Positions 13,919 through 64,000 of a stretch of 64,000 nucleotides of DNA are shown here, one piece after another. The DNA is taken from IMG/VR virus record IMGVR_UViG_3300048577_000342, one strand, 5' to 3'. Position 1 is the stretch's first letter. Each line of letters opens with the position of its first letter. The DNA comes from a virus. The notes below the pieces were generated by a model. It was not told the DNA's origin. It saw only the letters and a program-made list of their open reading frames with translations, and did not search any database. A program made the translations under genes and the position numbers.

Positions 13919-15731
13919 CCTGACGGATGACCGCTGCACCGCCTATGCCCGCAACGTCGTCGCGGGCGATGTGGTGGCCGGTCCCTATGTGCGCCTCGCA
14001 TGCCAGCGTCATCTCGCTGACCTGCGGGACGGCACCGCGCGCGGACTCTTCTACGATCCGGCCGCCGCCGCCCGCGTCATCGCCTATTTCGCGAAGGTGC
14101 TGAAAGTGGCGGCGGACGGCCAGTCCGTGCCCTTCATCCCGGCGGAATGGCAGTGCTTCGTGCTGGGTTCTCTGTTCGGCTGGAAGCGCTCGGCAACAGG
14201 CGCGCGCCGCTTCCGCGAGGCCTATATCGAGACCGGCAAGGGCTCGGGCAAGTCGCCTCTCGCGGCCGGCATCGGCATGTACATGCTGACCTCGGACGGC
14301 GAGTACAGGCCGGAGATCTATGCAGCCGCCTCGAAGCGCGACCAGGCCATGATCCTGTTCCAGGACGCAGTCTCGATGCGGCGTTCCTCGCCCGTCCTGA
14401 TCGGCAAGACCTCGGTGCGCGGCGTCGAGCCGGTCTATCACATCGGCTATCCGAAGCAGGAGGGCTTCTTCCGCCCGATCGCTTCCGAGGACGGCCAGTC
14501 CGGTCCGCGCCCGTCCTGCGCTCTTGTCGATGAGCTGCATGAGCATCGCGACGCGGGCGTCATCACCATGCTGGAAAAGGGTTTCAAGGGCCGCGCCCAG
14601 CCGCTGCTCTTCACCATCACCAATTCCGGCTTCGATCTGTCGTCGCCCTGCGGCCTGCGTCACACCGCGGCGATCGAGATGCTGCGCGGCGAGCTGGCCG
14701 AGCAGGCTAATCCCGACGACCTCTTCGCCTATGTCTGCGCGCTCGACCCCGGCGACGACCCGCTTGAGGATGAGAGCTGCTGGGCCAAGACCAACCCCTC
14801 GCTCGGCGTCACTATCAAGCCGGACTATCTGCGGGCCCAGGTCGCCCAGGCCCGCCGCATCCCGGCCGAGCGCAACATCTGCCTCCGGCTCAATTTCTGC
14901 GTCTGGACCGAGTCGGAAACCTCCTGGCTGTCGCGCGAGGTCGTCGCGCCCTGCATCGCGCATTTCGAACCGGTCGAACTGCACCGATCGAAGTCGCTCT
15001 TCCTGGGTGCCGACCTTTCGGCCGTCAACGATATGACGGCGCTCGTCGGTGTCGTGCCCACCGGCTTCGTGCCGGTCGGCCGCCCCGACGGCACCAAGGA
15101 CATGCTGCCGACCTTCGACGCCTGGGCCGAGGCTTGGACGCCGAGGGATACGCTGCGCGAGCGCGAGGAGCGCGACAAGGCGCCCTATGGCCTGTGGGTG
15201 AAACAGGGCCACCTTGTCGCGCTGCCCGGTTCGCGCATCCGGCTCAGCCATGTCGCGCATCGAATCATGGAGCTGGACGAGGCTTTTACGATCGATGCGC
15301 TGGCCTACGACCGCTACGCCTTCGACAAGCTGAAGGACGATCTCGACGATCTCGGCCTCGACCTGCCGCTCTGGGACCACCCGCAGGCCGGCAAGTCGCG
15401 CAAGAGCCCGCCGGCCGATGTGGTCGAGGCGGCGAAATCAGCCGGCGAGGAAGTGCCGAAGGGGCTGTGGATGCCGGGCTCGCGCCGCATGGTCGAGGAA
15501 CTGCTCATCGAGAAGCGGCTTCGCCTCCGCTTCTCGCCGGTCCTCAATGCGGCCATCGCCGGCGCGCGGCTCGAAAACGACGCCCTCGATAACGGCTTCC
15601 TGATCAAGTCGAAGTCGACGAAGCGCATCGATCCCGCCATCGCGCTCTGCATGGCGGTCGGTGTGGCGACGCAGCGTGTCGTTCCGCCGCGCATTTCCGT
15701 CTACCAATCCCGCGGCGTGCTGGTGCTCTGA
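13893..15731 (+). CDS. terL: Terminase large subunit A
   Basis: Walker A GKGSGKS, Walker B LVDELHE, nuclease GADLSAVNDMT and KRIDP. Confidence 0.92.
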   Translation: MTPTSSSPDLTDDRCTAYARNVVAGDVVAGPYVRLACQRHLADLRDGTARGLFYDPAAAARVIAYFAKVLKVAADGQSVPFIPAEWQCFVLGSLFGWKRSATGARRFREAYIETGKGSGKSPLAAGIGMYMLTSDGEYRPEIYAAASKRDQAMILFQDAVSMRRSSPVLIGKTSVRGVEPVYHIGYPKQEGFFRPIASEDGQSGPRPSCALVDELHEHRDAGVITMLEKGFKGRAQPLLFTITNSGFDLSSPCGLRHTAAIEMLRGELAEQANPDDLFAYVCALDPGDDPLEDESCWAKTNPSLGVTIKPDYLRAQVAQARRIPAERNICLRLNFCVWTESETSWLSREVVAPCIAHFEPVELHRSKSLFLGADLSAVNDMTALVGVVPTGFVPVGRPDGTKDMLPTFDAWAEAWTPRDTLREREERDKAPYGLWVKQGHLVALPGSRIRLSHVAHRIMELDEAFTIDALAYDRYAFDKLKDDLDDLGLDLPLWDHPQAGKSRKSPPADVVEAAKSAGEEVPKGLWMPGSRRMVEELLIEKRLRLRFSPVLNAAIAGARLENDALDNGFLIKSKSTKRIDPAIALCMAVGVATQRVVPPRISVYQSRGVLVL

Positions 15732-15733
15732 CC

Positions 15734-17020
15734 ATGGCCGGATCCTCGATCCCCTCGTCCTACCCTGTAGTGCCGCGCACCTCCGTGCCCGTCGTCGCGC
15801 CGCGCGCCGCGACGCAGTCCGCCGGCGGCGGAACGCTGATCACCACGGCGGCCGAGCTCGCGGCCTTCCTGACCGAAGGCAACGCCACCCGGTCCGGCGT
15901 CCCGGTCACGCCCGAGCGCTCGCTCGCCGATCCCACCGTCTTCGGCTGTGTCCGCCTGATCACCTCTGCGGTCGGCACCATGCCGCTCGACATCAAGCGC
16001 CGCATCGACGATCGCCGGCGCGAGGATGCCTCCGACACCCGCCTCTGGCAGCTCATGCGCCGGCGGCCCAACCGCTGGCAGAAGCCGCACCAGTTCCGCC
16101 GCATGCTCCAGGCCCACGTCCTGCTGCGCGGCAACGCCTACTGCCTGATCGTCCGCTCGCGCGGCGAGATCCTCGAGCTCGTGCCGCTGCATCCCGACAG
16201 GGTCGAGCCAAAGCAGGGGGCGGACCTCAGGGTCGAGTATCACTATCGCCGCCCGGATGGCGGCCTCACCATCTTCCAGGCCCGCGAGATCTTCCATCTC
16301 TTCGGCCTGTCGCTGGACGGCATCCGCGGTGTCACTCCGCTGACCTATGCCCGCGAGACCGTTGGCCTGTCGCTGGCCATGGCCGAGCACGGCGCATCCA
16401 TGTTCGCCAACGGCGCCCGCGTTCCGGGCTACCTGAAGCATCCCGGCCGTCTCGGACAGGAAGCAATCGCCGGGATCAAGTCGAGCCTGGAGGAGTATCG
16501 CTCCGGTGGCGAGCGCGAGGGCCGCGAGCTCGTCCTGGAAGAGGGCATGGAATACGTCCAGCTCGGCCTGACCTCCGTCGATGCCCAGTGGATCGAGAGC
16601 CGCCGATTCTCCCGCACCGACCTCGCCATGTTCTACGGCGTGCCCCCGTTCCTGCTGGGCGACACCGAGAAGTCGACCAGCTGGGGCACCGGGCTTGAAC
16701 AGCAGAAGGACGGCTTCGTCGCCTTCGGCCTCGAGGACCACCTGACCATGTGGGAGGAGGGGATCACGATCGACCTCTCCGAGGACCCGGCGATCTACGC
16801 ACGCTTCGTTCGCTCGGCTCTCGTGCGCGGCGACACCAAGGCCCGCTGGGAAGCCTATGCGCGACAGCTCCAGTGGGGCGTCCGCAACCCGAACGAGATT
16901 CGCGCCCTCGAAGACGAAAACCCCCGCGAGGGCGGCGACCGCTACTACGACCCGCCGAACCAGGCGGGCGGCCAGACCGATAGCCCGGAGACCGGCAATG
17001 ACCCTTCGCAAGCTGCCTGA
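15734..17020 (+). CDS. HK97-family portal protein
   Basis: LLRGNAY, LEEGMEY, FYGVPP motifs; follows TerL. Confidence 0.95.
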   Translation: MAGSSIPSSYPVVPRTSVPVVAPRAATQSAGGGTLITTAAELAAFLTEGNATRSGVPVTPERSLADPTVFGCVRLITSAVGTMPLDIKRRIDDRRREDASDTRLWQLMRRRPNRWQKPHQFRRMLQAHVLLRGNAYCLIVRSRGEILELVPLHPDRVEPKQGADLRVEYHYRRPDGGLTIFQAREIFHLFGLSLDGIRGVTPLTYARETVGLSLAMAEHGASMFANGARVPGYLKHPGRLGQEAIAGIKSSLEEYRSGGEREGRELVLEEGMEYVQLGLTSVDAQWIESRRFSRTDLAMFYGVPPFLLGDTEKSTSWGTGLEQQKDGFVAFGLEDHLTMWEEGITIDLSEDPAIYARFVRSALVRGDTKARWEAYARQLQWGVRNPNEIRALEDENPREGGDRYYDPPNQAGGQTDSPETGNDPSQAA

Positions 17021-17852
17021 GGCCCGCGCCTTCGCGCGTCCGCAGAACTTCCAGTGGGACGCGCCGGCCGATGTGCTCGCCCGCTGGGCCGCTTCGCCGC
17101 TCGCGGCCGACAGCGCCGACGAGACGACGATCACCATGTTCGACGTCATCGGCGAGGACTGGTGGACCGGCGCCGGCGTCGCCGCCAAGCGCGTCTCGGC
17201 GGCGTTGCGGGCCATCGGCTCGCGCGACGTGACGGTGAAGATCAACTCGCCGGGTGGCGACCTCTTCGAGGGGATCGCAATCTACAACCTTCTGCGCGCC
17301 CATCCCGCCAAGGTGAAGGTCGAGGTGCTGGGCTATGCCGCCTCGGCCGCCTCCATCATCGCCATGGCCGGTGACGAGATCCGCATGGGGCTCGGCACCT
17401 TCATGATGATCCACAATGCCTGGGGCGTCGTCATCGGCAACAGGCACGACCTCGCCGAAGCCTCGAAGCTTTTCGAGCAGTTCGATGCGGCGATCGCCGA
17501 CGTCTACGAGGCGCGCTCCGGCATGAAGCGCGCCGACATCGAGGCGCTCATGGACGCCGAAGCCTGGATGGCGCCGTCCGAGGCGGTCGCGAACGGCTTT
17601 GCCGATTCCGTCGACGAGGCCCTCGTGGCTCCCGCCGCGGAACCGTCCAACAAGACTGACCGCGGGTTGATGGCCCGCCGCCAGACCGAGGCGGCCCTCG
17701 CCCGCGCCGGCTACAGCCGGCAGGCGCGGACCGACATGCTCTCCCAGATGATGGCCGCTCAGCGCGATGCAGGCGGCCATGCCACGCGTGATGCAGGCGA
17801 CCCTCTCGATCTCGCTGCCGTTCGGCAGCTGATCGCCACCCTGAAAACCTGA
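16998..17852 (+). CDS. ClpP (S14)-type prohead protease
   Basis: INSPGGD, AASAAS, MMIHNAW; start moved to ATG 16998. Confidence 0.9.
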   Translation: MTLRKLPEARAFARPQNFQWDAPADVLARWAASPLAADSADETTITMFDVIGEDWWTGAGVAAKRVSAALRAIGSRDVTVKINSPGGDLFEGIAIYNLLRAHPAKVKVEVLGYAASAASIIAMAGDEIRMGLGTFMMIHNAWGVVIGNRHDLAEASKLFEQFDAAIADVYEARSGMKRADIEALMDAEAWMAPSEAVANGFADSVDEALVAPAAEPSNKTDRGLMARRQTEAALARAGYSRQARTDMLSQMMAAQRDAGGHATRDAGDPLDLAAVRQLIATLKT

Positions 17853-17863
17853 AGGAGCTTCCG

Positions 17864-19249
17864 ATGAAGCGCTCTTACGTCGTGGCCGCGCTGGGCGCGG
17901 CCGCCCTGCTCTGCGTCTGCCTGCTGGCAACGCTTCCCGCCGATCTTCCCGCCGGCGTCGCCGGTCTCGTCCAGGCGGGCGCACTCATGCCCGTCGTCGC
18001 CTCCCGGCCCCGCGGCCTCGTCGCCGTCCGGGCCGACCAGACGCCGGCCCAGATCATCGCCGAGCTGAATCGCGCCTTCGAGGCCTTCAAGTCCGAGCAC
18101 TCGAAAGAGATGGCCGATGTGAAGAAGGCGATGGGCGATGTCGTCCAGACCGAGAAGGTCGATCGCATCAACGCCGAGATCACCAAGCTTCAGGCGGCGA
18201 TGGACGAGATGAACGCCTCGGTGGCCGCAGCCCGGCTCGGTGGCGGTGGCGGCGCCCAGGCGCTGACGGCCGACCAGCGCGCCCATGCGACGGCTTTCGA
18301 CCGCTTCTTCCGCATGGGTGTGGACAACGGCCTGCGCGACCTCGAGGTCAAGGCCTCGCTGCAGACCCAGTCGGATCCGGACGGCGGTTATGTCGTGCCG
18401 GTGCAGCAGGAGCAGACGATCGACCGTGTCCTGGCGACCGTCTCGGCCATGCGCCAGCTCGCGACCATCCGGCAGGTCTCGTCGAAGAGCTACAAGAAGC
18501 TCGTCAATCTCGGCGGTGCCGGCTCCGGCTGGGTCGGCGAGACCGGCCAGCGCCCCCAGACGGGCACCCCCGAGCTTGCGCAGCTGGAGTATCCGGTCAT
18601 GGAACTTTACGCCAACCCGGCGGCGACCCAGACCGTGCTCGACGATGCCGCCATCGATCTCGGCGCCTGGCTCGCCGACGAGGTGGCGATCACCTTCGCC
18701 GAGCAGGAGGCCGGGGCCTTTATCTCCGGCAGCGGCGTCAACCGGCCCCGCGGCCTGCTGGCCTATGACACCGTGGCCAACGCCTCCTACGCCTGGGGCA
18801 AGCTCGGCTTCATCGTCACCGGTGCTGCTGCGGACTTCGCCACGACCGATCCGGCCGACGCCTTCATCGATCTCGTCTACGGGATCAAGCAGGGCTACCG
18901 CCAGAACGCCTCCTTCCTCATGAACCGCACGGTCCAGGGCAAGGTGCGCAAGTTCAAGGACGGCAACGACAACTATCTGTGGCAGCCCTCGGCGGAGCAG
19001 GGCCAGCCCGCGACCTTCATCGGCTACCCGATCGCCGATGACGACAACATGCCGGACGTCGGCGCCAATGCCTTCCCGGTGGCCTTCGGCGACTTCCGCC
19101 GCGGCTACCTGATCGTCGACCGCATCGGCATCCGCGTCCTGCGCGACCCCTACACCAACAAGCCCTACGTCCACTTCTACACGACCAAGCGCGTGGGCGG
19201 CGGCGTCCAGAACTTCGAGGCCATCAAGCTGCTGAAGTGCTCGACCTGA
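17864..19249 (+). CDS. HK97-fold major capsid protein
   Basis: DPDGGYVVP, FGDFRRGYLIVDR, KRVGGGV; strong RBS. Confidence 0.95.
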   Translation: MKRSYVVAALGAAALLCVCLLATLPADLPAGVAGLVQAGALMPVVASRPRGLVAVRADQTPAQIIAELNRAFEAFKSEHSKEMADVKKAMGDVVQTEKVDRINAEITKLQAAMDEMNASVAAARLGGGGGAQALTADQRAHATAFDRFFRMGVDNGLRDLEVKASLQTQSDPDGGYVVPVQQEQTIDRVLATVSAMRQLATIRQVSSKSYKKLVNLGGAGSGWVGETGQRPQTGTPELAQLEYPVMELYANPAATQTVLDDAAIDLGAWLADEVAITFAEQEAGAFISGSGVNRPRGLLAYDTVANASYAWGKLGFIVTGAAADFATTDPADAFIDLVYGIKQGYRQNASFLMNRTVQGKVRKFKDGNDNYLWQPSAEQGQPATFIGYPIADDDNMPDVGANAFPVAFGDFRRGYLIVDRIGIRVLRDPYTNKPYVHFYTTKRVGGGVQNFEAIKLLKCST

Positions 19250-19257
19250 GGATGAGC

Positions 19258-19282
19258 GCGGGCGGGACGATCTCCCGCCCGC
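19258..19282 (+). terminator. GC-rich hairpin after the capsid gene (terminator or stabiliser)
   Basis: GCGGGCGGGA-cgatc-TCCCGCCCGC; weak U-tract. Confidence 0.45.
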
Positions 19283-19348
19283 CTGTTCCATGACTTCGCC
19301 TGGCTGAGCTCCCAGCCGCCCTCCACCGCTTCCACAAGGAACCGTCCC

Positions 19349-19786
19349 ATGAAGGACCTTCACTCCGGAGTGTCGCTCGCCGTCCTGATCGGCGCCGCCA
19401 CCCTCTCCGCCGACAACACGCCGGCGGCCGTCGATCTCAAGGGCGCCGATGCGGCCGAGATTATCCTGCAGGTCGGTGCCGGCGGCATCACCTTCTCCGG
19501 CACCAACAAGATCGAGTTCAAGCTCACGCACTCGGACGACGACTCGACCTACGAGGACGTCGAGACCGCCGACATGCTCGGCGTCACTGTCGCCTCCGGC
19601 GGTATCATCAAGTCGCTCGTCGCGGCCCATGCCGCCGCGGCGGCCTATCGCTACGGCTACATCGGCGGCAAGCGCTACCTGAAGCTCCTCGCGGACTTTT
19701 CCGGCACCCACGGCAGCGGCACGCCCATCGCCGCGACCGTGGTGAAGGGCGCGCTCTCCATCCAGCCCGCCGCCGACCAGGCCTGA
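19349..19786 (+). CDS. Virion protein, possibly head decoration
   Basis: Beta-rich 145 aa directly after the capsid gene. Confidence 0.55.
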   Translation: MKDLHSGVSLAVLIGAATLSADNTPAAVDLKGADAAEIILQVGAGGITFSGTNKIEFKLTHSDDDSTYEDVETADMLGVTVASGGIIKSLVAAHAAAAAYRYGYIGGKRYLKLLADFSGTHGSGTPIAATVVKGALSIQPAADQA

Positions 19787-19857
19787 TCCCTCATCACCCA
19801 TGAAACCGCAAGGTCGGGACGGTCCATCCGTCCCGCGCCATGCCAGAGGAGAGACCC

Positions 19858-20067
19858 ATGACCATCAAGGTCATCAAGCCGTTCAAGGGCGTGCCCGACG
19901 GCGAAGTGCATCCGCGCCAGTTCAATCCCGGCGACATCGTCAGCGGCTCCCTCGCCGCCGTCGCGCTCGCCGAGAAGTGGGCGAAGGATATGTCGAAGGC
20001 CAAGGCGGAAGAGACGCCGCCGCCTGCCACGGCGAACCCCGTCACGACGCCGCCCTCGGCGACCTGA
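19858..20067 (+). CDS. Small head-associated protein
   Basis: RBS GAGGAG; MTIKVIKPFKG. Confidence 0.55.
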   Translation: MTIKVIKPFKGVPDGEVHPRQFNPGDIVSGSLAAVALAEKWAKDMSKAKAEETPPPATANPVTTPPSAT

Positions 20068-20070
20068 TCC

Positions 20071-20622
20071 ATGTATGCCCCGGAAAGAGTGGCTGGGCCC
20101 GAAGCCCAGCCGGTCACGCGCGGCGAGGCCAAGGCCCACCTGCGCATCGAGACCGACGAGGATGATGCACTGATCGACGGCCTCATCGAGACCGCGACGG
20201 CGCATTTCGACGGCTGGACCGGCGTGCTCGGCCGTTGCCTCGTCACCCAGACCTGGCGGCTGAAGCTGGACCGGTTCTGCGATCCGATCCGCCTGCCCAT
20301 GCCGGCATCGGCGATCTCCGCGATCATCTCTGGCGGGGACGCCGTCTCGGCCAGCGTCTACGAGCTGCTGCACGATGCCGCCGGATCCTACGTCACCCGC
20401 AAGGACGGGCAGTCCTGGCCGACGGTGCCTTCCGGCAACGCCAAGGTGGCGGTGGATTTCGTCGCGGGCTACGGCGCCGCCGCTGCGGTGCCGCTGCCGA
20501 TCCGCACGGCCATCCTCATCCTTGTCGGTCACCTCTATGACAACCGCGGCGGCTCCAACCAGGGCGGCCCTCCTGCCGTCCTGGACGTGCTGATCCGTCC
20601 CTATCGCCGCGTGACCGTCTGA
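20071..20622 (+). CDS. Head-tail connector (gp6-like)
   Basis: EAKAHLRI..DDALI, PIRTAILILVGHLYDNR. Confidence 0.9.
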   Translation: MYAPERVAGPEAQPVTRGEAKAHLRIETDEDDALIDGLIETATAHFDGWTGVLGRCLVTQTWRLKLDRFCDPIRLPMPASAISAIISGGDAVSASVYELLHDAAGSYVTRKDGQSWPTVPSGNAKVAVDFVAGYGAAAAVPLPIRTAILILVGHLYDNRGGSNQGGPPAVLDVLIRPYRRVTV

Positions 20623-20987
20623 TGCCCGACATCATCGGCCTGCTCTCCTCCCGCGTCTCGTTCCACCGGGCCTATGAGGCCGAGGGGGCGATGGGCCGCA
20701 AGGTCGGGGTGAGGATCTGCATCGACGAGCGCTGGGCCTCGGTCCGGCCGGATCGCGGCACCACGGCGCTGGAAGGCCAGGTGCCGGTGGACCGCTGCGA
20801 CCTCATCGTCACCCTGCGCACCGGCGGCATCGTCGATCAGCTGACGATCGAGGACCGCCTCGTCTACCCGGCCCGCTCCGGCGACTGGTACCGCATCACG
20901 TCGATCGAGCCTGCCAACCGGCAGATCGGCCGCCGCACGCTCTACTGCGTCCGCGAGGCGCGGCCCTCGCCCGCCGACGACGCCTGA
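20622..20987 (+). CDS. Head closure/adaptor protein
   Basis: Position; YRITSIEP motif. Confidence 0.65.
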   Translation: MPDIIGLLSSRVSFHRAYEAEGAMGRKVGVRICIDERWASVRPDRGTTALEGQVPVDRCDLIVTLRTGGIVDQLTIEDRLVYPARSGDWYRITSIEPANRQIGRRTLYCVREARPSPADDA

Positions 20988-21030
20988 CACCCGCCATCCG
21001 TTCCCGCTTCTCAACCACCAGGAGGCCGCC

Positions 21031-21537
21031 ATGGGCGCGCAGCTCGACATCGCCGTGCAGATTCTCGGCAGCTACACCGGGTCCAACGACATCGCCGCCG
21101 TCGCCGCGTCCTTCTCCAAGCGCAAGGCGCTGGGCTTCACCTCCGGCACCGGCGCCGGCCAGGCCGACAAGGTCTTCTCCGACACCCGGTCGATCCCCGC
21201 CTCGTCCAACGACGACATCGACCTCGCCGGCTCGCTCGTCGATCCGCTCGGCGCCGCGGTGACCTTCGCCGGCATCAAGGCGATCTACATCGAGGCCGAC
21301 GCCGCCAACGTCAACGACGTCGTCGTCGGTGGCCACGACACCGCCTCCTTCCTTGGTCCCTTCGCCGATGCCTCCGACAAGGTGAAGCTGAAGGCCGGCG
21401 AGGTGCTGCTGGTCACCAACCGCAGCGCAGCCGGCTGGCCCGTCACCGCCACCACGGCCGACATCCTGCGCATCGCCAATGGCGGCTCGGGCTCGGCCGT
21501 CGGCTATTCCATCATCCTGATCGGCGACAGCGCGTAA
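21031..21537 (+). CDS. Virion structural protein of unknown function
   Basis: RBS GGAGG; located in the neck region. Confidence 0.6.
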   Translation: MGAQLDIAVQILGSYTGSNDIAAVAASFSKRKALGFTSGTGAGQADKVFSDTRSIPASSNDDIDLAGSLVDPLGAAVTFAGIKAIYIEADAANVNDVVVGGHDTASFLGPFADASDKVKLKAGEVLLVTNRSAAGWPVTATTADILRIANGGSGSAVGYSIILIGDSA

Positions 21538-21992
21538 TGGCGATCTACGGCCTCGCGGCCCGGGCGCTGCTCTTCGCGGCCCCCAGCATTCCGGCAGCCA
21601 CGGCAGCCGCCGGGGTGCTGGGCGTCATCGAAACGCTCACCGGCCTGAAAAAGGTCTGGTCGAGCATCGTCACCCTCGCCAGTGGCGGTGACGAGCGGCT
21701 GGCGAAGGAAATCGTCGCCCTGCAGCGCGAGCGCGGGCCAGACGACACCTTCACCCTCGAGCGCGGCACCGACTGGCGGCGCGAGGGCGACGAGATCGTC
21801 ATCACCGCCTCGGCCGTCCGCCGGCTCACCTCGGGCGACAGTGACGATTACGCATGGTTCGTCGAGCGCGGCACCGACGACACCGAGGCGCAGCCCTACT
21901 TCTGGGATTCGGCGGCGGAGAGGTTCGCCGCCTGGGGTCGCGACATGGACCAGATCCTCGATACGGCCGCCGCCGAGTTCAACGCAGGGTGA
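21537..21992 (+). CDS. HK97 gp10-like neck protein
   Basis: AWFVERGT..EAQPYF. Confidence 0.7.
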   Translation: MAIYGLAARALLFAAPSIPAATAAAGVLGVIETLTGLKKVWSSIVTLASGGDERLAKEIVALQRERGPDDTFTLERGTDWRREGDEIVITASAVRRLTSGDSDDYAWFVERGTDDTEAQPYFWDSAAERFAAWGRDMDQILDTAAAEFNAG

Positions 21993-21995
21993 TCC

Positions 21996-22199
21996 ATGCG
22001 CTACCGCGTCACCGAAAACCGCGTCATGAGCGGCTACGAGCTGAAGGCCTCCTTCCTCTATGAGGCCGGGCAGATCGTCGACGACACGGTGGATCCGCCC
22101 GATCATGTCGAGCGGCTTCTCGCCGCCGGCGTGCTCGAGCCGATCACCGAGGATCCGCCGCCGCCTGCGCCCGCCCGCCGCGGGAGGGCCGCATCATGA
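21996..22199 (+). CDS. Small phage protein
   Basis: Coupled ORF in the neck region. Confidence 0.55.
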   Translation: MRYRVTENRVMSGYELKASFLYEAGQIVDDTVDPPDHVERLLAAGVLEPITEDPPPPAPARRGRAAS

Positions 22200-22609: not shown

Positions 22610-22635
22610 TCTCGCCAAACCCAACGGAGGGCCGC

Positions 22636-23701: not shown

Positions 23702-23707
23702 GCGACC

Positions 23708-27815: not shown

Positions 27816-27818
27816 TCC

Positions 27819-54175: not shown

Positions 54176-54281
54176 CTATGGCGAGGGTGGTGGACGAGCG
54201 GCAGGTGAGCGATTCACCCGACCGTGCGGGAGCATGAGATGGATACGACAAGCCCGGCCAGCGCGCCGGGCTTCGTCGTTT
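54171..54281 (+). terminator. Conserved structured late leader/terminator
   Basis: Homolog of 10438-10545. Confidence 0.65.
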
Positions 54282-54404
54282 CAGAGGCATAGGGCAGCGC
54301 CCTGCCTCGCCCGAACGGCACGGTGACGCCGCGCCCGGGATCGTTCGGGGGAGCGAGACAGGGCGGGGCGGGGCGCCCCTGCCGTCCCCCTGACCCCGGG
54401 TGCC

Positions 54405-54791: not shown

Positions 54792-54796
54792 ACCCG
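54752..54796. other. Candidate cos region B
   Basis: GGGGGGTggGTCAAaaGTCTGGCG...CTAGACCCG. Confidence 0.5.
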
Positions 54797-54826
54797 CATT
54801 CCCCCCATCCGGAGATTTTTTCTTCC

Positions 54827-55303: not shown

Positions 55304-57000
55304 CCGCCTGGTCCTTCGCCTGTCCCGACTGGGTCGACCGCCTCAAGGCTGGCCGCTCGCTCATCCCGGATCTCCCCCTCGACGAGGCGGAGGCGGCCCG
55401 GGCGGTCGGCATCTTCGACAAGCTCTGCCTGCCGGATGTGCCGGGCACGCCGACCCTCAGGGAGGCCGCCGGAGACTGGGCCCGCGACATCGTCCGCGCC
55501 GCGTTCGGTTCCCTCGACCGGGAGACCATGCACCGCCACGTCGCCGAGATATTCGCCCTGGTGCCGAAGAAGAACTCGAAGACGACCTACATCGGCGGCG
55601 CCGTCGGCGTCGTCGCCATGCTCGCCAACAAGCGCCCGCGCGCCGAGATGCTCTTCATCGGGCCGACGCAGGAGATTGCCGACCTCGCCTTCCAGCAGGC
55701 ATCCGGCATGATCGCCTCGGATCCTGAAGGCTACTTGCAGAAGCGCTTCCACGTCGTCGAGCACCAGAAGACGATCGTCGACCGGCTCACCAAGGCCAAG
55801 CTGAAGATCAAGACCTTCGACCTGAAGGTCCTCACCGGCGCCAAGCCTGTCGTCGTCATCGTCGACGAGCTGCACATCATGTCCCAGCTCTCCTACGCCT
55901 CCCGCGTCCTCGGCCAGCTGCGCGGCGGCCTCATCCCGAACCCCGAGAGCCTCCTCATCATGATCACCACCCAGTCGGACGATGTCCCGGCCGGCGTTTT
56001 CAAGACCGAACTCGACTATGCCCGCGGCGTCCGCGACGGCCGCATTACCGAGGACGTCCGCATGCTGCCGATCCTCTACGAGTTCCCCGAGGACATGCAG
56101 GCCTCCGGCGCCTGGCGTGATCCCTCCGTCTGGCCCATGGTCCTGCCCAATCTCGGCCGCTCCATCACGATCGAGCGCCTCCTCCCCGAATATCGCGGTG
56201 CTCGCGACAAGGGGCTGGAAGAGGAGCGCCGGTGGGCCTCGCAGCATCTCAACGTCGAGATCGGCATGGGTCTGCACTCCGCCCGGTGGCGCGGCGCCGA
56301 CCACTGGCTCGACGCCGCCGACGAGCAACTCGCGGATCTCGACGCCTTCCTCGCGCGCTGCGACGTCGTCACCGCCGGCGTCGACGGTGGCGGCCTCGAC
56401 GACATGCTCGCCCTCGGCCTCATCGGCCGATGCCGTAGCACGCGCGACTGGCTCTCGTGGAACCGCGCCTGGCTGCAGCGCTCGGTGCTGGCCCTGCGCA
56501 AGGACATCGCCGAGCGTCTCGAAGGCTTCGGCCGCGATGGAGATCTCGTCCTTTGCGACGACGCCACCGAGGACATCATGGGCCTCGTCGACATCGTCGA
56601 GCGCGTCCGCGACGCGGGCCTGCTGCCGAACGAGAACGGCGTCGGCCTCGACCCCTACGGCGTCGCCGCCCTGGTCGACGAGTTCGCCGCGCGCGGCATC
56701 ACCGTACCGACCCTTGTCTCGGTTGGGCAGGGCACGCGGCTGTCGCCGGCGGTCTGGGGTCTCGAGCGCAAGCTCAACGACGGCACTTTCTGGCATGGCG
56801 GCCGTCCGCTCATGACCTGGTGCGTCGGCAACGCGAAGGCGGAACAGCGGGGCAATGCGGTGCTGATCACAAAGCAGACGGCCGGCAAGGCGAAGATCGA
56901 CCCGCTGGTGGCAACGTTCAACGCCGCCATGCTGATGGCCAAGAACCCCGAAGCCATCGGCCGCAGCGTCTATGAGACGCGCGGCGTGCTGGTGCTCTGA
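55300..57000 (+). CDS. terL: Terminase large subunit B
   Basis: PKKNSKT Walker A variant, VIVDELH, GVDGGGLDD, KIDPLVA. Confidence 0.9.
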   Translation: MTAWSFACPDWVDRLKAGRSLIPDLPLDEAEAARAVGIFDKLCLPDVPGTPTLREAAGDWARDIVRAAFGSLDRETMHRHVAEIFALVPKKNSKTTYIGGAVGVVAMLANKRPRAEMLFIGPTQEIADLAFQQASGMIASDPEGYLQKRFHVVEHQKTIVDRLTKAKLKIKTFDLKVLTGAKPVVVIVDELHIMSQLSYASRVLGQLRGGLIPNPESLLIMITTQSDDVPAGVFKTELDYARGVRDGRITEDVRMLPILYEFPEDMQASGAWRDPSVWPMVLPNLGRSITIERLLPEYRGARDKGLEEERRWASQHLNVEIGMGLHSARWRGADHWLDAADEQLADLDAFLARCDVVTAGVDGGGLDDMLALGLIGRCRSTRDWLSWNRAWLQRSVLALRKDIAERLEGFGRDGDLVLCDDATEDIMGLVDIVERVRDAGLLPNENGVGLDPYGVAALVDEFAARGITVPTLVSVGQGTRLSPAVWGLERKLNDGTFWHGGRPLMTWCVGNAKAEQRGNAVLITKQTAGKAKIDPLVATFNAAMLMAKNPEAIGRSVYETRGVLVL

Positions 57001-57002
57001 CC

Positions 57003-58289
57003 ATGGCCGGATCCTCGATCCCCTCGTCCTATCCGGTGGCGCCGCGCACCTCCGTGCCCATCGTCTCGCCGCGCGCCGCGACGCAGTCCGCCGGCGGCGG
57101 AACCCTGATCACCACCGCGGCCGAGCTGGCGGCCTTCCTGACCGAAGGCAATGCCACCCGCTCCGGCGTCCCGGTCACGCCAGAGCGATCGCTTGCAGAT
57201 CCCACCGTCTTCGGCTGCGTCCGCCTCATCACCTCTGCAGTCGGCACCATGCCGCTCGACATCAAGCGGCGCATCGATGATCGCCGGCGCGAGGATGCCT
57301 CCGACACCCGCCTCTGGCAGCTCATGCGCCGGCGGCCGAACCGCTGGCAGAAGCCGCACCAGTTCCGCCGCATGCTCCAGGCCCATGTCCTGCTGCGCGG
57401 CAACGCCTACTGCCTGATCGTCCGCTCCCGCGGCGAGATCCTGGAGCTGGTGCCGCTGCATCCCGACAGGGTCGAGCCGAAGCAGGGTGCGGACCTCAGG
57501 GTCGAGTATCACTATCGCCGCCCGGATGGCGGCCTCACCATCTTCCAGGCCCGCGAGATCTTCCACCTCTTCGGCCTGTCGCTGGACGGCATTCGGGGCG
57601 TCACCCCGCTCACCTATGCCCGCGAGACCGTCGGCCTGTCGCTGGCCATGGCCGAGCACGGCGCGTCCATGTTCGCCAACGGCGCCCGCGTTCCCGGCTA
57701 CCTGAAGCATCCGGGCCGCCTCGGACCCGAAGCCGTCGCCGGTATCAAGTCGAGCCTCGAGGAATATCGCTCGGGCGGCGAGCGCGAAGGCCGCGAACTC
57801 GTCCTCGAAGAGGGCATGGAATACGTCCAGCTCGGCCTGACATCCGTCGATGCCCAGTGGATCGAGAGCCGCCGCTTCTCCCGCACCGACCTCGCCATGT
57901 TCTACGGCGTGCCGCCCTTCCTCCTGGGCGACACCGAGAAGTCGACCAGCTGGGGCACCGGCCTCGAACAGCAGAAGGACGGCTTCGTCGCCTTCGGCCT
58001 CGAGGACCACCTGACCATGTGGGAGGAGGGGATCACGATCGACCTCTCCGAGGATCCGGCCATCTACGCTCGCTTCGTCCGGTCGGCCCTCGTTCGCGGC
58101 GACACCAAGGCTCGCTGGGAAGCCTATGCGCGGCAGCTCCAGTGGGGTGTCCGCAACCCGAACGAGATCCGCGCCCTCGAGGACGAGAACCCCCGCGAGG
58201 GCGGCGACCGCTACTACGACCCGCCGAACCAGGCGGGTGGCCAGACCGATAGCCCGGAGACCGGCAATGACCCTTCGCAAGCTGCCTGA
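57003..58289 (+). CDS. HK97-family portal protein
   Basis: 5 aa differences from 15734-17020. Confidence 0.95.
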   Translation: MAGSSIPSSYPVAPRTSVPIVSPRAATQSAGGGTLITTAAELAAFLTEGNATRSGVPVTPERSLADPTVFGCVRLITSAVGTMPLDIKRRIDDRRREDASDTRLWQLMRRRPNRWQKPHQFRRMLQAHVLLRGNAYCLIVRSRGEILELVPLHPDRVEPKQGADLRVEYHYRRPDGGLTIFQAREIFHLFGLSLDGIRGVTPLTYARETVGLSLAMAEHGASMFANGARVPGYLKHPGRLGPEAVAGIKSSLEEYRSGGEREGRELVLEEGMEYVQLGLTSVDAQWIESRRFSRTDLAMFYGVPPFLLGDTEKSTSWGTGLEQQKDGFVAFGLEDHLTMWEEGITIDLSEDPAIYARFVRSALVRGDTKARWEAYARQLQWGVRNPNEIRALEDENPREGGDRYYDPPNQAGGQTDSPETGNDPSQAA

Positions 58290-59121
58290 GGCCCGCGCCT
58301 TCGCGCGTCCGCAGAACTTTCAGTGGGACGCTCCGGCCGACGTGCTCGCCCGCTGGGCCGCCTCGCCGCTCGCTGCCGACAGTGCCGACGAGACGACGAT
58401 CACCATGTTCGACGTCATCGGCGAGGACTGGTGGACCGGCGCCGGCGTCACCGCCAAGCGCGTCTCGGCGGCGTTGCGGGCCATCGGCTCGCGCGACGTG
58501 ACGGTGAAGATCAACTCGCCGGGAGGCGACCTCTTCGAGGGGATCGCGATCTACAACCTTCTGCGCGCCCATCCCGCCAGGGTGAAAGTCGAGGTGCTGG
58601 GCTATGCCGCCTCGGCCGCCTCCATCATCGCCATGGCAGGTGACGAGATCCGCATGGGGCTCGGCACCTTCATGATGATCCACAATGCCTGGGGCGTCGT
58701 CATCGGCAACAGACACGACCTCGCCGAAGCCTCGAAGCTCTTCGAGCAGTTCGATGCGGCGATCGCCGACGTCTACGAGGCGCGCTCCGGCATGAAGCGC
58801 GCCGACATCGAGGCGCTCATGGACGCCGAAGCCTGGATGGCGCCGTCCGAGGCGGTCGCGAACGGCTTTGCCGATTCCGTCGACGAGGCCCTCGTGGCTC
58901 CCGCCGCGGAACCGTCCAACAAGACTGACCGCGGGTTGATGGCCCGCCGCCAGACCGAGGCGGCCCTCGCCCGCGCCGGCTACAGCCGGCAGGCGCGGAC
59001 CGACATGCTCTCCCAGATGATGGCCGCTCAGCGCGATGCAGGCGGCCATGCCACGCGTGATGCAGGCGACCCTCTCGATCTCGCTGCCGTTCGGCAGCTG
59101 ATCGCCACCCTGAAAACCTGA
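58267..59121 (+). CDS. ClpP-type prohead protease
   Basis: 2 aa differences from the copy at 16998. Confidence 0.9.
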   Translation: MTLRKLPEARAFARPQNFQWDAPADVLARWAASPLAADSADETTITMFDVIGEDWWTGAGVTAKRVSAALRAIGSRDVTVKINSPGGDLFEGIAIYNLLRAHPARVKVEVLGYAASAASIIAMAGDEIRMGLGTFMMIHNAWGVVIGNRHDLAEASKLFEQFDAAIADVYEARSGMKRADIEALMDAEAWMAPSEAVANGFADSVDEALVAPAAEPSNKTDRGLMARRQTEAALARAGYSRQARTDMLSQMMAAQRDAGGHATRDAGDPLDLAAVRQLIATLKT

Positions 59122-59132
59122 AGGAGCTTCCG

Positions 59133-60518
59133 ATGAAGCGCTCTTACGTCGTGGCCGCGCTGGGCGCGGCCGCCCTGCTCTGCGTCTGCCTGCTGGCAAC
59201 GCTTCCCGCCGATCTTCCCGCCGGCGTCGCCGGTCTCGTCCAGGCGGGCGCACTCATGCCCGTCGTCGCCTCCCGGCCCCGCGGCCTCGTCGCCGTCCGG
59301 GCCGACCAGACGCCGGCCCAGATCATCGCCGAGCTGAATCGCGCCTTCGAGGCCTTCAAGTCCGAGCACTCGAAAGAGATGGCCGATGTGAAGAAGGCGA
59401 TGGGCGATGTCGTCCAGACCGAGAAGGTCGATCGCATCAACGCCGAGATCACCAAGCTTCAGGCGGCGATGGACGAGATGAACGCCTCGGTGGCCGCAGC
59501 CCGGCTCGGTGGCGGTGGCGGCGCCCAGGCGCTGACGGCCGACCAGCGCGCCCATGCGACGGCTTTCGACCGCTTCTTCCGCATGGGTGTGGACAACGGC
59601 CTGCGCGACCTCGAGGTCAAGGCCTCGCTGCAGACCCAGTCGGATCCGGACGGCGGTTATGTCGTGCCGGTGCAGCAGGAGCAGACGATCGACCGTGTCC
59701 TGGCGACCGTCTCGGCCATGCGCCAGCTCGCGACCATCCGGCAGGTCTCGTCGAAGAGCTACAAGAAGCTCGTCAATCTCGGCGGTGCCGGCTCCGGCTG
59801 GGTCGGCGAGACCGGCCAGCGCCCCCAGACGGGCACCCCCGAGCTTGCGCAGCTGGAGTATCCGGTCATGGAACTTTACGCCAACCCGGCGGCGACCCAG
59901 ACCGTGCTCGACGATGCCGCCATCGATCTCGGCGCCTGGCTCGCCGACGAGGTGGCGATCACCTTCGCCGAGCAGGAGGCCGGGGCCTTTATCTCCGGCA
60001 GCGGCGTCAACCGGCCCCGCGGCCTGCTGGCCTATGACACCGTGGCCAACGCCTCCTACGCCTGGGGCAAGCTCGGCTTCATCGTCACCGGTGCTGCTGC
60101 GGACTTCGCCACGACCGATCCGGCCGACGCCTTCATCGATCTCGTCTACGGGATCAAGCAGGGCTACCGCCAGAACGCCTCCTTCCTCATGAACCGCACG
60201 GTCCAGGGCAAGGTGCGCAAGTTCAAGGACGGCAACGACAACTATCTGTGGCAGCCCTCGGCGGAGCAGGGCCAGCCCGCGACCTTCATCGGCTACCCGA
60301 TCGCCGATGACGACAACATGCCGGACGTCGGCGCCAATGCCTTCCCGGTGGCCTTCGGCGACTTCCGCCGCGGCTACCTGATCGTCGACCGCATCGGCAT
60401 CCGCGTCCTGCGCGACCCCTACACCAACAAGCCCTACGTCCACTTCTACACGACCAAGCGCGTGGGCGGCGGCGTCCAGAACTTCGAGGCCATCAAGCTG
60501 CTGAAGTGCTCGACCTGA
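59133..60518 (+). CDS. HK97-fold major capsid protein
   Basis: Identical to 17864-19249. Confidence 0.95.
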   Translation: MKRSYVVAALGAAALLCVCLLATLPADLPAGVAGLVQAGALMPVVASRPRGLVAVRADQTPAQIIAELNRAFEAFKSEHSKEMADVKKAMGDVVQTEKVDRINAEITKLQAAMDEMNASVAAARLGGGGGAQALTADQRAHATAFDRFFRMGVDNGLRDLEVKASLQTQSDPDGGYVVPVQQEQTIDRVLATVSAMRQLATIRQVSSKSYKKLVNLGGAGSGWVGETGQRPQTGTPELAQLEYPVMELYANPAATQTVLDDAAIDLGAWLADEVAITFAEQEAGAFISGSGVNRPRGLLAYDTVANASYAWGKLGFIVTGAAADFATTDPADAFIDLVYGIKQGYRQNASFLMNRTVQGKVRKFKDGNDNYLWQPSAEQGQPATFIGYPIADDDNMPDVGANAFPVAFGDFRRGYLIVDRIGIRVLRDPYTNKPYVHFYTTKRVGGGVQNFEAIKLLKCST

Positions 60519-60617
60519 GGATGAGCGCGGGCGGGACGATCTCCCGCCCGCCTGTTCCATGACTTCGCCTGGCTGAGCTCCCAGCCGCCCTCCACCGCTT
60601 CCACAAGGAACCGTCCC

Positions 60618-61055
60618 ATGAAGGACCTTCACTCCGGAGTGTCGCTCGCCGTCCTGATCGGCGCCGCCACCCTCTCCGCCGACAACACGCCGGCGGCCGT
60701 CGATCTCAAGGGCGCCGATGCGGCCGAGATTATCCTGCAGGTCGGTGCCGGCGGCATCACCTTCTCCGGCACCAACAAGATCGAGTTCAAGCTCACGCAC
60801 TCGGACGACGACTCGACCTACGAGGACGTCGAGACCGCCGACATGCTCGGCGTCACTGTCGCCTCCGGCGGTATCATCAAGTCGCTCGTCGCGGCCCATG
60901 CCGCCGCGGCGGCCTATCGCTACGGCTACATCGGCGGCAAGCGCTACCTGAAGCTCCTCGCGGACTTTTCCGGCACCCACGGCAGCGGCACGCCCATCGC
61001 CGCGACCGTGGTGAAGGGCGCGCTCTCCATCCAGCCCGCCGCCGACCAGGCCTGA
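60618..61055 (+). CDS. Virion protein, possibly head decoration
   Basis: Identical to 19349-19786. Confidence 0.55.
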   Translation: MKDLHSGVSLAVLIGAATLSADNTPAAVDLKGADAAEIILQVGAGGITFSGTNKIEFKLTHSDDDSTYEDVETADMLGVTVASGGIIKSLVAAHAAAAAYRYGYIGGKRYLKLLADFSGTHGSGTPIAATVVKGALSIQPAADQA

Positions 61056-61126
61056 TCCCTCATCACCCATGAAACCGCAAGGTCGGGACGGTCCATCCGT
61101 CCCGCGCCATGCCAGAGGAGAGACCC

Positions 61127-61336
61127 ATGACCATCAAGGTCATCAAGCCGTTCAAGGGCGTGCCCGACGGCGAAGTGCATCCGCGCCAGTTCAATCCCGG
61201 CGACATCGTCAGCGGCTCCCTCGCCGCCGTCGCGCTCGCCGAGAAGTGGGCGAAGGATATGTCGAAGGCCAAGGCGGAAGAGACGCCGCCGCCTGCCACG
61301 GCGAACCCCGTCACGACGCCGCCCTCGGCGACCTGA
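61127..61336 (+). CDS. Small head-associated protein
   Basis: Identical to 19858-20067. Confidence 0.55.
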   Translation: MTIKVIKPFKGVPDGEVHPRQFNPGDIVSGSLAAVALAEKWAKDMSKAKAEETPPPATANPVTTPPSAT

Positions 61337-61339
61337 TCC

Positions 61340-61891
61340 ATGTATGCCCCGGAAAGAGTGGCTGGGCCCGAAGCCCAGCCGGTCACGCGCGGCGAGGCCA
61401 AGGCCCACCTGCGCATCGAGACCGACGAGGATGATGCACTGATCGACGGCCTCATCGAGACCGCGACGGCGCATTTCGACGGCTGGACCGGCGTGCTCGG
61501 CCGTTGCCTCGTCACCCAGACCTGGCGGCTGAAGCTGGACCGGTTCTGCGATCCGATCCGCCTGCCCATGCCGGCATCGGCGATCTCCGCGATCATCTCT
61601 GGCGGGGACGCCGTCTCGGCCAGCGTCTACGAGCTGCTGCACGATGCCGCCGGATCCTACGTCACCCGCAAGGACGGGCAGTCCTGGCCGACGGTGCCTT
61701 CCGGCAACGCCAAGGTGGCGGTGGATTTCGTCGCGGGCTACGGCGCCGCCGCTGCGGTGCCGCTGCCGATCCGCACGGCCATCCTCATCCTTGTCGGTCA
61801 CCTCTATGACAACCGCGGCGGCTCCAACCAGGGCGGCCCTCCTGCCGTCCTGGACGTGCTGATCCGTCCCTATCGCCGCGTGACCGTCTGA
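61340..61891 (+). CDS. Head-tail connector
   Basis: Identical to 20071-20622. Confidence 0.9.
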   Translation: MYAPERVAGPEAQPVTRGEAKAHLRIETDEDDALIDGLIETATAHFDGWTGVLGRCLVTQTWRLKLDRFCDPIRLPMPASAISAIISGGDAVSASVYELLHDAAGSYVTRKDGQSWPTVPSGNAKVAVDFVAGYGAAAAVPLPIRTAILILVGHLYDNRGGSNQGGPPAVLDVLIRPYRRVTV

Positions 61892-62256
61892 TGCCCGACA
61901 TCATCGGCCTGCTCTCCTCCCGCGTCTCGTTCCACCGGGCCTATGAGGCCGAGGGGGCGATGGGCCGCAAGGTCGGGGTGAGGATCTGCATCGACGAGCG
62001 CTGGGCCTCGGTCCGGCCGGATCGCGGCACCACGGCGCTGGAAGGCCAGGTGCCGGTGGACCGCTGCGACCTCATCGTCACCCTGCGCACCGGCGGCATC
62101 GTCGATCAGCTGACGATCGAGGACCGCCTCGTCTACCCGGCCCGCTCCGGCGACTGGTACCGCATCACGTCGATCGAGCCTGCCAACCGGCAGATCGGCC
62201 GCCGCACGCTCTACTGCGTCCGCGAGGCGCGGCCCTCGCCCGCCGACGACGCCTGA
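61891..62256 (+). CDS. Head closure protein
   Basis: Identical to 20622-20987. Confidence 0.65.
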   Translation: MPDIIGLLSSRVSFHRAYEAEGAMGRKVGVRICIDERWASVRPDRGTTALEGQVPVDRCDLIVTLRTGGIVDQLTIEDRLVYPARSGDWYRITSIEPANRQIGRRTLYCVREARPSPADDA

Positions 62257-62299
62257 CACCCGCCATCCGTTCCCGCTTCTCAACCACCAGGAGGCCGCC

Positions 62300-62806
62300 A
62301 TGGGCGCGCAGCTCGACATCGCCGTGCAGATTCTCGGCAGCTACACCGGGTCCAACGACATCGCCGCCGTCGCCGCGTCCTTCTCCAAGCGCAAGGCGCT
62401 GGGCTTCACCTCCGGCACCGGCGCCGGCCAGGCCGACAAGGTCTTCTCCGACACCCGGTCGATCCCCGCCTCGTCCAACGACGACATCGACCTCGCCGGC
62501 TCGCTCGTCGATCCGCTCGGCGCCGCGGTGACCTTCGCCGGCATCAAGGCGATCTACATCGAGGCCGACGCCGCCAACGTCAACGACGTCGTCGTCGGTG
62601 GCCACGACACCGCCTCCTTCCTTGGTCCCTTCGCCGATGCCTCCGACAAGGTGAAGCTGAAGGCCGGCGAGGTGCTGCTGGTCACCAACCGCAGCGCAGC
62701 CGGCTGGCCCGTCACCGCCACCACGGCCGACATCCTGCGCATCGCCAATGGCGGCTCGGGCTCGGCCGTCGGCTATTCCATCATCCTGATCGGCGACAGC
62801 GCGTAA
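62300..62806 (+). CDS. Virion structural protein
   Basis: Identical to 21031-21537. Confidence 0.6.
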   Translation: MGAQLDIAVQILGSYTGSNDIAAVAASFSKRKALGFTSGTGAGQADKVFSDTRSIPASSNDDIDLAGSLVDPLGAAVTFAGIKAIYIEADAANVNDVVVGGHDTASFLGPFADASDKVKLKAGEVLLVTNRSAAGWPVTATTADILRIANGGSGSAVGYSIILIGDSA

Positions 62807-63261
62807 TGGCGATCTACGGCCTCGCGGCCCGGGCGCTGCTCTTCGCGGCCCCCAGCATTCCGGCAGCCACGGCAGCCGCCGGGGTGCTGGGCGTCATCGA
62901 AACGCTCACCGGCCTGAAAAAGGTCTGGTCGAGCATCGTCACCCTCGCCAGTGGCGGTGACGAGCGGCTGGCGAAGGAAATCGTCGCCCTGCAGCGCGAG
63001 CGCGGGCCAGACGACACCTTCACCCTCGAGCGCGGCACCGACTGGCGGCGCGAGGGCGACGAGATCGTCATCACCGCCTCGGCCGTCCGCCGGCTCACCT
63101 CGGGCGACAGTGACGATTACGCATGGTTCGTCGAGCGCGGCACCGACGACACCGAGGCGCAGCCCTACTTCTGGGATTCGGCGGCGGAGAGGTTCGCCGC
63201 CTGGGGTCGCGACATGGACCAGATCCTCGATACGGCCGCCGCCGAGTTCAACGCAGGGTGA
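62806..63261 (+). CDS. HK97 gp10-like neck protein
   Basis: Identical to 21537-21992. Confidence 0.7.
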   Translation: MAIYGLAARALLFAAPSIPAATAAAGVLGVIETLTGLKKVWSSIVTLASGGDERLAKEIVALQRERGPDDTFTLERGTDWRREGDEIVITASAVRRLTSGDSDDYAWFVERGTDDTEAQPYFWDSAAERFAAWGRDMDQILDTAAAEFNAG

Positions 63262-63264
63262 TCC

Positions 63265-63468
63265 ATGCGCTACCGCGTCACCGAAAACCGCGTCATGAGC
63301 GGCTACGAGCTGAAGGCCTCCTTCCTCTATGAGGCCGGGCAGATCGTCGACGACACGGTGGATCCGCCCGATCATGTCGAGCGGCTTCTCGCCGCCGGCG
63401 TGCTCGAGCCGATCACCGAGGATCCGCCGCCGCCTGCGCCCGCCCGCCGCGGGAGGGCCGCATCATGA
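63265..63468 (+). CDS. Small phage protein
   Basis: Identical to 21996-22199. Confidence 0.55.
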   Translation: MRYRVTENRVMSGYELKASFLYEAGQIVDDTVDPPDHVERLLAAGVLEPITEDPPPPAPARRGRAAS

Positions 63469-63878
63469 GCCTGTCGCCGGAAGAGGCGGTGGGCGCCGCC
63501 GTCGCCGCCCTCGCGAAGTCGGCGCTCGCCCCGCTCGCCTTCTATGACTACGTTCCGGCGGATGGCGAGCTGCGCACGCCTCTCGCCGCCCTCGGCGTCG
63601 TCGGCTCGCAGCGCCAGCACGGCAACCGCTGCGGCAAGGTCTGGCAGGTGTCCTTCCGCCTGCACCTCATGTCCAAGGCCTCCGGCCGCGAGGATGCCTG
63701 GCGCTGGCTCCAGAAGCTGCGCGATGCCCTCGATGGCCAGACCCTCGCGCTGGCCGATCCCTATGCCGCCGAGACGCGCCTCAGGGAGCAGCGCGCCGGC
63801 GATGCCGCCGACCGGCTCCAGGCCTTCAACCACGCCTTCATCCAGTTCGAGCTGACGGTCTCCCGCCCGCTCGCGTGA
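63465..63878 (+). CDS. Tail completion protein
   Basis: Identical to 22196-22609. Confidence 0.7.
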   Translation: MSLSPEEAVGAAVAALAKSALAPLAFYDYVPADGELRTPLAALGVVGSQRQHGNRCGKVWQVSFRLHLMSKASGREDAWRWLQKLRDALDGQTLALADPYAAETRLREQRAGDAADRLQAFNHAFIQFELTVSRPLA

Positions 63879-63904
63879 TCTCGCCAAACCCAACGGAGGG
63901 CCGC

Positions 63905-64000
63905 ATGACCGCCAACACTCTCATTGAGACCGAACTGCACCAGCTCTTCCTGTCGGATGGCACCGAAGGCGCCGGGCGCTTCAAGTTCATGTGCTATGTC
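63905..64000 (+). CDS. Tail tube protein, 5' part (cut by the window edge)
   Basis: MTANTLIETELHQLFLSDG, identical to the start at 22636. Confidence 0.75.
   Translation, partial: MTANTLIETELHQLFLSDGTEGAGRFKFMCYV

Follow-up and report, generated by a model that had tools for sequence, protein, structure and literature searches.

Does a viral contig that reads as one temperate phage inside another describe a chromosome, or the route of an assembler through two phages? The window analyzed here is the whole 64,000-nt stretch of the IMG/VR virus record IMGVR_UViG_3300048577_000342. It opens in the left arm of a prophage (prophage A) lying in the host gene dusA, runs through the complete genome of a phage (phage B) with its own integrase and phage attachment site (attP), and closes within a second copy of the head and tail genes. 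An earlier note on this DNA had proposed that circular phage B either entered prophage A by homologous recombination or was joined to it by the assembler through a shared repeat. The latter part of that interpretation is supported by breakpoints in sister assemblies, while the nesting that gave the proposal its headline is most likely not a real feature. We place at roughly 85% the probability that the window is an assembly path, which runs from the left arm of A (A-left) into circular B through a shared head segment (R), and not a nested phage. What is biologically real is a pair of related HK97-type temperate phages, both undescribed, which differ in their integration modules and have recently exchanged a segment of the head region.

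The window is organized around a direct repeat at an offset of 41,269. As first described, the copies are diverged in the portal and protease genes with a last mismatch at 17471/58740, and this proves exact. Identity climbs from ~30%, the chance level for DNA of 68% GC content, to more than 92% at position 15711; the copies are ~95% identical over 15711–17471, with 85 mismatches within 15763–17471. Beyond this point at least 5.2 kb of apparent identity had been noted, and we find 5,260 bases, all identical, up to the window end (17472–22731 and 58741–64000), a run that is bounded by the contig end and not by biology. The 41,269-bp unit does correspond to one gene set, and a full temperate-phage set at that: integrase, cI/cro, replication genes, a NusG-like gene, terS/terL, portal, protease, capsid, tail, lysis and methylase. 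At 64,867 bp, the source metagenome contig is the longest with the window's proteins, and the window makes up nearly all of it; the contig thus ends at most 867 bp past the window, ~6 kb into the second copy. No second tail module, right attachment site or host DNA is reached before the end of this 64,867-bp contig.

Contigs of the same locus were inspected in four sister samples (574, 575, 578 and 599) of the Joint Genome Institute (JGI) metagenome series 33000485xx (Table 1). In these samples the locus is found in four pieces, A-left, R, B (20512–58855) and the right arm of A (A-right), which meet at exact 127-nt overlaps; R, B and A-right are three separate contigs in sample 574. Such exact 127-nt offsets are characteristic of a de Bruijn graph built with k = 127, which we take to be the largest k of the metaSPAdes runs that the JGI normally uses, and the assembler was presumably metaSPAdes-like. 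In samples 574 and 575, R forms a contig of its own with a length of exactly 3,167 bp. The sample-575 version is identical to the window, and that of sample 574 is a consensus, 12 single-nucleotide polymorphisms (SNPs) off, whose mosaic composition shows that the assembler collapses small differences between A and B within R. The A-left contig of sample 599 carries nine A-specific SNPs at 17636–18607, positions at which the two copies in the window show the B allele. The attP junction of B was also assembled in the sister samples.

Prophage A is complete without B. A-right is a 24,393-bp contig, traced through its variant tape-measure and head-tail proteins, that starts at window position 20512, is identical for 127 nt and shows its first difference at 20639. 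Its tail genes are 92–94% identical to those of B, and the tail tip differs (886 versus 1066 aa and 599 versus 544 aa). The contig carries its own methylase and SLT protein, followed by the integrase int_A (361 aa), which matches PF00589 and lies head-to-head with a restored dusA, preceded by a copy of the dusA upstream region that the phage carries. The 14-nt core GCGCCGATGATGGA of the left junction recurs at the int_A–dusA junction, 43,815 bp from the left core in the model of A. Assembled from the sister-sample contigs, A-left, R and A-right form a complete 43,815-bp prophage between dusA cores.

The two related temperate phages occur together in the sample series. Phage B, a 41,269-bp unit that would target the 3′ end of tRNA-Phe, is present in its attP form, whether circular, concatemeric or as virions. 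R is a repeat node with two entrances, A-left and the left part of B (B-left), and two exits, A-right and the right part of B (B-right), and is too long for read pairs to span. On the reading that we favor, the k = 127 path of the source contig would be rho-shaped, passing through A-left, R, B-right, attP, the integrase of B (int_B), B-left, R and B-right again before it stops, and the two copies would be identical because the same graph edges were written twice. The source contig amounts to A-left plus 1.15 laps of B, and its sole unusual joint, from A-left to B alleles, falls within a 164-nt stretch (17472–17635) that is identical in both phages.

This joint could also be a real recombinant junction without any nesting, belonging to a hybrid with the early genes of A and the late genes of B, in which only the second lap of B would be an assembly loop. 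A switch inside a stretch identical in both phages suits such a hybrid, as does the SNP gradient around R, which points to a past exchange of the segment between A and B. The right end of a hybrid residing in dusA would, however, still have to contain int_A and dusA, but the path enters the attP and integrase of B. Moreover, such a junction needs no more than the collapse of minor A alleles in R onto the more abundant B path, as in the sample-574 consensus of R. We consider a hybrid unlikely.

Certain observations weigh against the assembly path. In samples 574 and 599 the B contigs stop at 58855, although the expected end, 58867, lies 12 nt further on. A shared A/B node of at least 127 nt, sought at the end of the source contig (positions equivalent to 22,731–23,598), was not found. 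We infer, rather than observe, that molecules running from A-left to B-right are absent from the source sample, and the separate A-right contig is known from the sister samples and is not proven for the source sample itself. With regard to the end at 58855, a third related variant in samples 574 and 599 is possible; the sample-578 contig ends exactly on node 58867. The cluster of a 121-aa head-tail protein contains many near-identical members, one of them on the 1.32-Mb host contig (L087).

Nesting by homologous recombination makes a prediction about the order of alleles. A single (Campbell-type) crossover of circular B at a point x yields A up to x, all of B, and then A from x. Since the change from A to B in the window falls between 17471 and 17636, this model needs a return to A between 58740 and 58905. 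No switch back occurs: the second copy has B alleles at all nine SNPs, and 58741–64000 matches B at 100% and differs from A by 113 mismatches and 10 gaps over 5.26 kb. Beyond 61908 the sequence is again 100% B, against 104 mismatches to A-right in 2.2 kb. Insertion of B into A was thus not upheld, as the second repeat is followed by B alleles and the right arm of A, int_A and dusA lie on separate contigs.

A narrower form of nesting would be a sub-population of the source sample in which B had recombined into a dusA prophage whose head was already B-converted, creating a reversible cointegrate with two integrases that could give rise to mosaics of A-early and B-late genes; we judge this quite improbable. 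The plain cointegrate, in which circular B recombined into A through the head genes to give the order dusA′–A-left–R–B–R–A-right–int_A–dusA and could resolve into A, B or mosaics, is more doubtful still and in our view very improbable. The two phages are collinear, share a near-identical 3.2-kb segment and occur in the same samples, temperate phages are well known to exchange DNA with prophages by homologous recombination (PMC3945230), and the order in the contig fits the left half of this structure. Yet the required B-to-A switch at the same point of the second copy is missing from a window that stays B for 5.2 kb, across all nine A SNPs and the 104 differences from A-right, and the contig ends before any A-right sequence. 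Rescue of the cointegrate needs an earlier swap of the head and tail start of A to B sequence plus a second event, and the joint is unsupported by independent assemblies, as all four sister samples (574, 575, 578 and 599) break at the repeat. An ordinary tandem double lysogen, formed at one site by the same integrase and attachment site, would account for the repeated integrase–early–late order of two related phages, but it is refuted by two unrelated integrases (int_A and int_B, BLASTP E = 0.12) and two different cores, the left end being a dusA junction with no integrase, int_A lying far to the right by dusA, int_B adjoining the tRNA-Phe core, no dusA-like motif occurring near int_B, and a BLAST-short search for a copy of the B attachment region at the left end of the window returning only chance matches of 10–12 nt, so that its probability is practically nil.

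The presence of two different attachment systems is in agreement with the earlier note, as is the rejection of a simple tandem at one site; the systems prove to be int_A with dusA and int_B with tRNA-Phe. Their modules are arranged in opposite order, with integrase then attachment site in A and attachment site then integrase in B. The outer element indeed starts at a dusA attachment site, where the open reading frame at 57–227 carries the core GCGCCGATGATGGA and encodes ...PWRFSVAPMMDW before it diverges from the intact dusA of a related strain. In that intact locus, on a 1.32-Mb contig (L087), an ABC ATPase gene precedes the Dus gene, and comparison with it places the break at a conserved 5′ motif of dusA. 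An intact dusA at this locus was found only in L087, which represents a related but different strain. On A-right, the mimic of the dusA upstream region leads into a new N-terminus that is fused in frame to Dus (Pfam, 1e-83).

Prophage A therefore has the features of a dusA-associated integrase (DAI) element: it is inserted in the 5′ end of dusA at a conserved motif with repeats at both ends, it supplies a new dusA 5′ end while the original is displaced to the other junction (window 57–227), and its tyrosine integrase adjoins dusA and is homologous to other dusA-linked integrases, its relatives in species genomes. These relatives of int_A (n = 4, 56–59% identity) all lie head-to-head with a dusA that starts ...VAPM(M/I)DWTDR. 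A-right also holds a mimic of the host upstream repeat TACAGC...CTACAGCGCGTGCTGTA. Just upstream of the dusA core, at window 78–125 (L001:1653-1700), the lysogen strain and the empty-site L087 are much more diverged than in the preceding 110 nt, the pattern that would follow if an earlier dusA element had already replaced the 5′ end of the gene. After the same ABC ATPase, other metagenomes have different genes (360 aa and 301 aa; L091:5727-8514, ENA ERZ27280359) or a contig break (L089, GCA_963852715.1) in the place of dusA, which suggests that in related strains the dusA site is taken by other elements.

The site beside int_B is an intact tRNA-type attP core, as had been proposed. Window 39877–39892 (CCGTCCCCGGGCACCA) equals the last 16 nt of tRNA-Phe and lies 23 nt from the int_B stop codon. 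Contigs of int_B relatives (95–97%) from unrelated public runs match from 39877 rightwards and read ...TGAAAATCGCAGTGTCGGTGGTTCGATT to the left of this point. Joined to CCGTCCCCGGGCACCA, ...TGAAAATCGCAGTGTCGGTGGTTCGATT forms the anticodon loop, variable region, T-arm and acceptor end of tRNA-Phe(GAA), and the composite matches a real tRNA-Phe gene. ARAGORN and Rfam detected no tRNA in the window, a negative that is misleading because the core is only 16 nt. Phage B thus shows one hallmark of a tRNA-integrating phage, in that the attP core beside its integrase reproduces exactly the 3′ end of a tRNA gene. Junctions of the attL type in tRNA-Phe come only from the 95–97% relatives in other metagenome runs. 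A sample-578 contig stops at 39893, 1 nt past the CCA of the tRNA, a position compatible with an attR branch whose host arm was not recovered; a graph branch at this point is as expected if integrated B also exists. A query of genome contigs with int_B found no relative.

Outside their integration modules, A and B are collinear, with identities of 70–81% in the early genes, 95.5% in the head, 92–93% in the tail and 86% in the methylase, and a divergent tail tip. Divergence around R runs in order through 5%, 1%, 0% and 6–8%, the trace left by a recent homologous exchange of the sort to be expected of temperate phages (PMC3945230). For the capsid protein, identity to any GenBank phage does not exceed 50%. 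The hosts are probably Alphaproteobacteria: protein cluster members are named as Xanthobacteraceae metagenome-assembled genomes (MAGs), the best relative of int_A is in an Alphaproteobacteria MAG, and the other three are in Pseudomonadota MAGs.

A further crossing between the two phages in the graph is marked by L102, a 15,199-bp A-right contig from sample 3300048579 that ends at A-right position 15710. This position is the first 127-mer of a 193-nt exact match with the lysis region of B (window 34768–34960).

The coordinates of the pieces and their genes are collected in Table 1. GC content is 68% for the window, which contains low-GC islands at 1–2000, 11000–13000 and 38000–40000. The cargo pair at 356–2172 (GC 51%) adjoins the dusA junction of A. 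Its two genes overlap, GmrSD_N is the sole domain of the first protein, and the pair is a candidate defense pair. In B, the equivalent zone by the attachment site contains int_B and a DUF5131 gene instead; the DUF5131 match covers ~377 residues against a 243-position profile, and there seems to be a large insertion in the domain. The early-left operon of A is on the minus strand. A pentapeptide-repeat protein (10772–12946, ~704–724 aa) forms an island of 53–57% GC between the NusG-like gene and terS of A; it is not in B, which has two small genes in the equivalent place. Both phages have a NusG/KOW paralogue (9877–10434 and 53609–54175) directly upstream of the late operon, where a late-gene antiterminator would lie. 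Between the methylase and the attP of B lies a divergent pair of genes for proteins of 355 and 132 aa (38018–39723, GC ~60%), for which no Pfam match was found. Their slot in A-right is taken by an SDH-type protease/NfeD-like protein and a 485-aa SLT protein. A methylase query of metagenome contigs, in a collection without the source samples, returned only relatives at 57–68%.

Table 1 Positions of the segments, genes and sister-sample contigs, in window coordinates.
Feature	Position	Strand	Remarks
Displaced original 5′ end of host dusA (attL of prophage A)	57..227	+	core at 144-157
GmrSD_N (DUF262) cargo protein of A	356-1549	+	PF03235, 5e-26
HEPN-like cargo protein of A	1549-2172	+	HEPN_RiboL-PSP, weak (2.6e-4, under family cut-off)
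A-left, specific to prophage A	2247..17471	both	PrtN-like, 694-aa protein, TSCPD, cI, cro, MT-A70, DnaA_C, NusG-like, pentapeptide protein, terS, terL-A, portal-A, protease start
cI of A	5822-6496	-	
NusG-like of A	9877-10434		
Pentapeptide protein of A	10772-12946		
terS of A	13448-13918		
terL-A	13893-15731		
portal-A	15734-17020		
R, first pass	17472..20638	+	3,167 bp; protease end, HK97-type capsid gene (17864-19249), head-tail genes; common to A and B
B-right	20639..39876	+	tail genes to low-GC pair; B contigs (38,344 bp) 100% identical
Tape measure of B	23708-25987		
Phage-tail_3 protein	27819-31019		1066 aa
DUF2793 fiber	31348-32982		
Endolysin	~33841-34296		
D12 methylase	37158-38021		
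355-aa protein	38018-39085	-	low GC
132-aa protein	39325-39723	+	low GC
attP core of phage B	39877..39893	+	tRNA-Phe(GAA) 3′ end: T-stem 3′ strand, acceptor strand, discriminator base, CCA
Integrase of B (int_B)	39916..41013	-	tyrosine recombinase, 365 aa; PF00589, 6e-13
B-left	41013..58740	both	DUF5131, 725-aa protein, TSCPD, cI, cro, ParB_N, MT-A70, DnaA_C, NusG-like, terS, terL-B, portal-B, protease start
DUF5131 protein	41219-42592		
725-aa protein of B	43418-45595	-	
cI of B	47657-48295	-	
MT-A70 of B	50247-51449		
NusG-like of B	53609-54175		
terL-B	55300-57000		
portal-B	57003-58289		
Second pass over R (58741-61907), then first part of B-right (61908-64000)	58741..64000	+	equals 17472-22731
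A-left contig, sample 575	host DNA to 17598		17471 + 127
A-left contig, sample 599	to 18734		18607 + 127
R contig, samples 574 and 575	17472-20638		bounded by both A/B differences
B contigs, samples 574 and 599	20512-58855		38,344 bp, across attP, 100% identical; start = 20639 - 127
B contig, sample 578	39767-58867		end = 58740 + 127
Neighboring contig, sample 578	ends 39893		overlaps the B contig by exactly 127 nt (39767-39893)

If the nesting were true, it would be a natural case of a whole phage parked in another by homologous recombination and a direct route to mosaic phages. The main value of the locus is cautionary: an assembly can fuse contigs of related phages that occur together, and extend them too far, by way of a module that they share, and the product then looks like nested or tandem prophages. 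Breakpoints at exactly k in sister assemblies offer a simple way to spot such fusions. The swapped integration modules and the exchanged head segment of A and B, for their part, fit established phage mosaicism.

Viral contigs longer than one genome are a documented artifact of metagenome assembly (PMC8116208). As in the over-length contigs that CheckV flags by k-mer frequency, the window follows a circular or concatemeric genome for more than one lap, its repeated part is perfectly identical, and its end falls at an arbitrary point in the repeat. Unlike a plain concatemer, however, the lap was entered from the left arm of A through the shared segment, and the result mimics a phage within a phage. 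The exchange of mosaic segments between temperate phages and prophages (De Paepe et al. 2014, PMC3945230) is matched by R, a near-identical patch in otherwise 70–95% identical, collinear genomes; what that work describes is segment exchange and not the stable insertion of a whole phage. Helper-embedded phage-inducible chromosomal islands (HE-PICI; PMC10111431) resemble the proposed nesting as mobile elements within the late region of a prophage, and they are genuinely nested there. These satellites enter a late gene by a site-specific integrase, whereas the inner element here is an entire phage whose attP has not been used, and the comparison is not applicable.

The closest counterparts are those of the two phages taken separately. 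Prophage A shares with DAI elements (Farrugia et al. 2015, PMC4482086) the insertion at the ...VAPMMDW... coding motif in the dusA 5′ end, a substitute 5′ end supplied together with upstream sequence, the displacement of the original one to the far junction and an integrase beside dusA. It differs from them as a new phage, with a capsid at most 50% identical to any GenBank phage and closest int_A relatives at 56–59%. Phage B resembles lambda-like temperate phages that integrate at the 3′ end of a tRNA gene, with an integrase by attP and a core that duplicates the tRNA 3′ end, such that the tRNA is restored on integration. Its order of integrase, early-left genes, cI/cro, replication genes and late genes is likewise lambda-like. 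Compared with these phages, the core of B is short (16–17 nt), and integrated copies were recovered only as the attL junctions of its relatives in other metagenomes.

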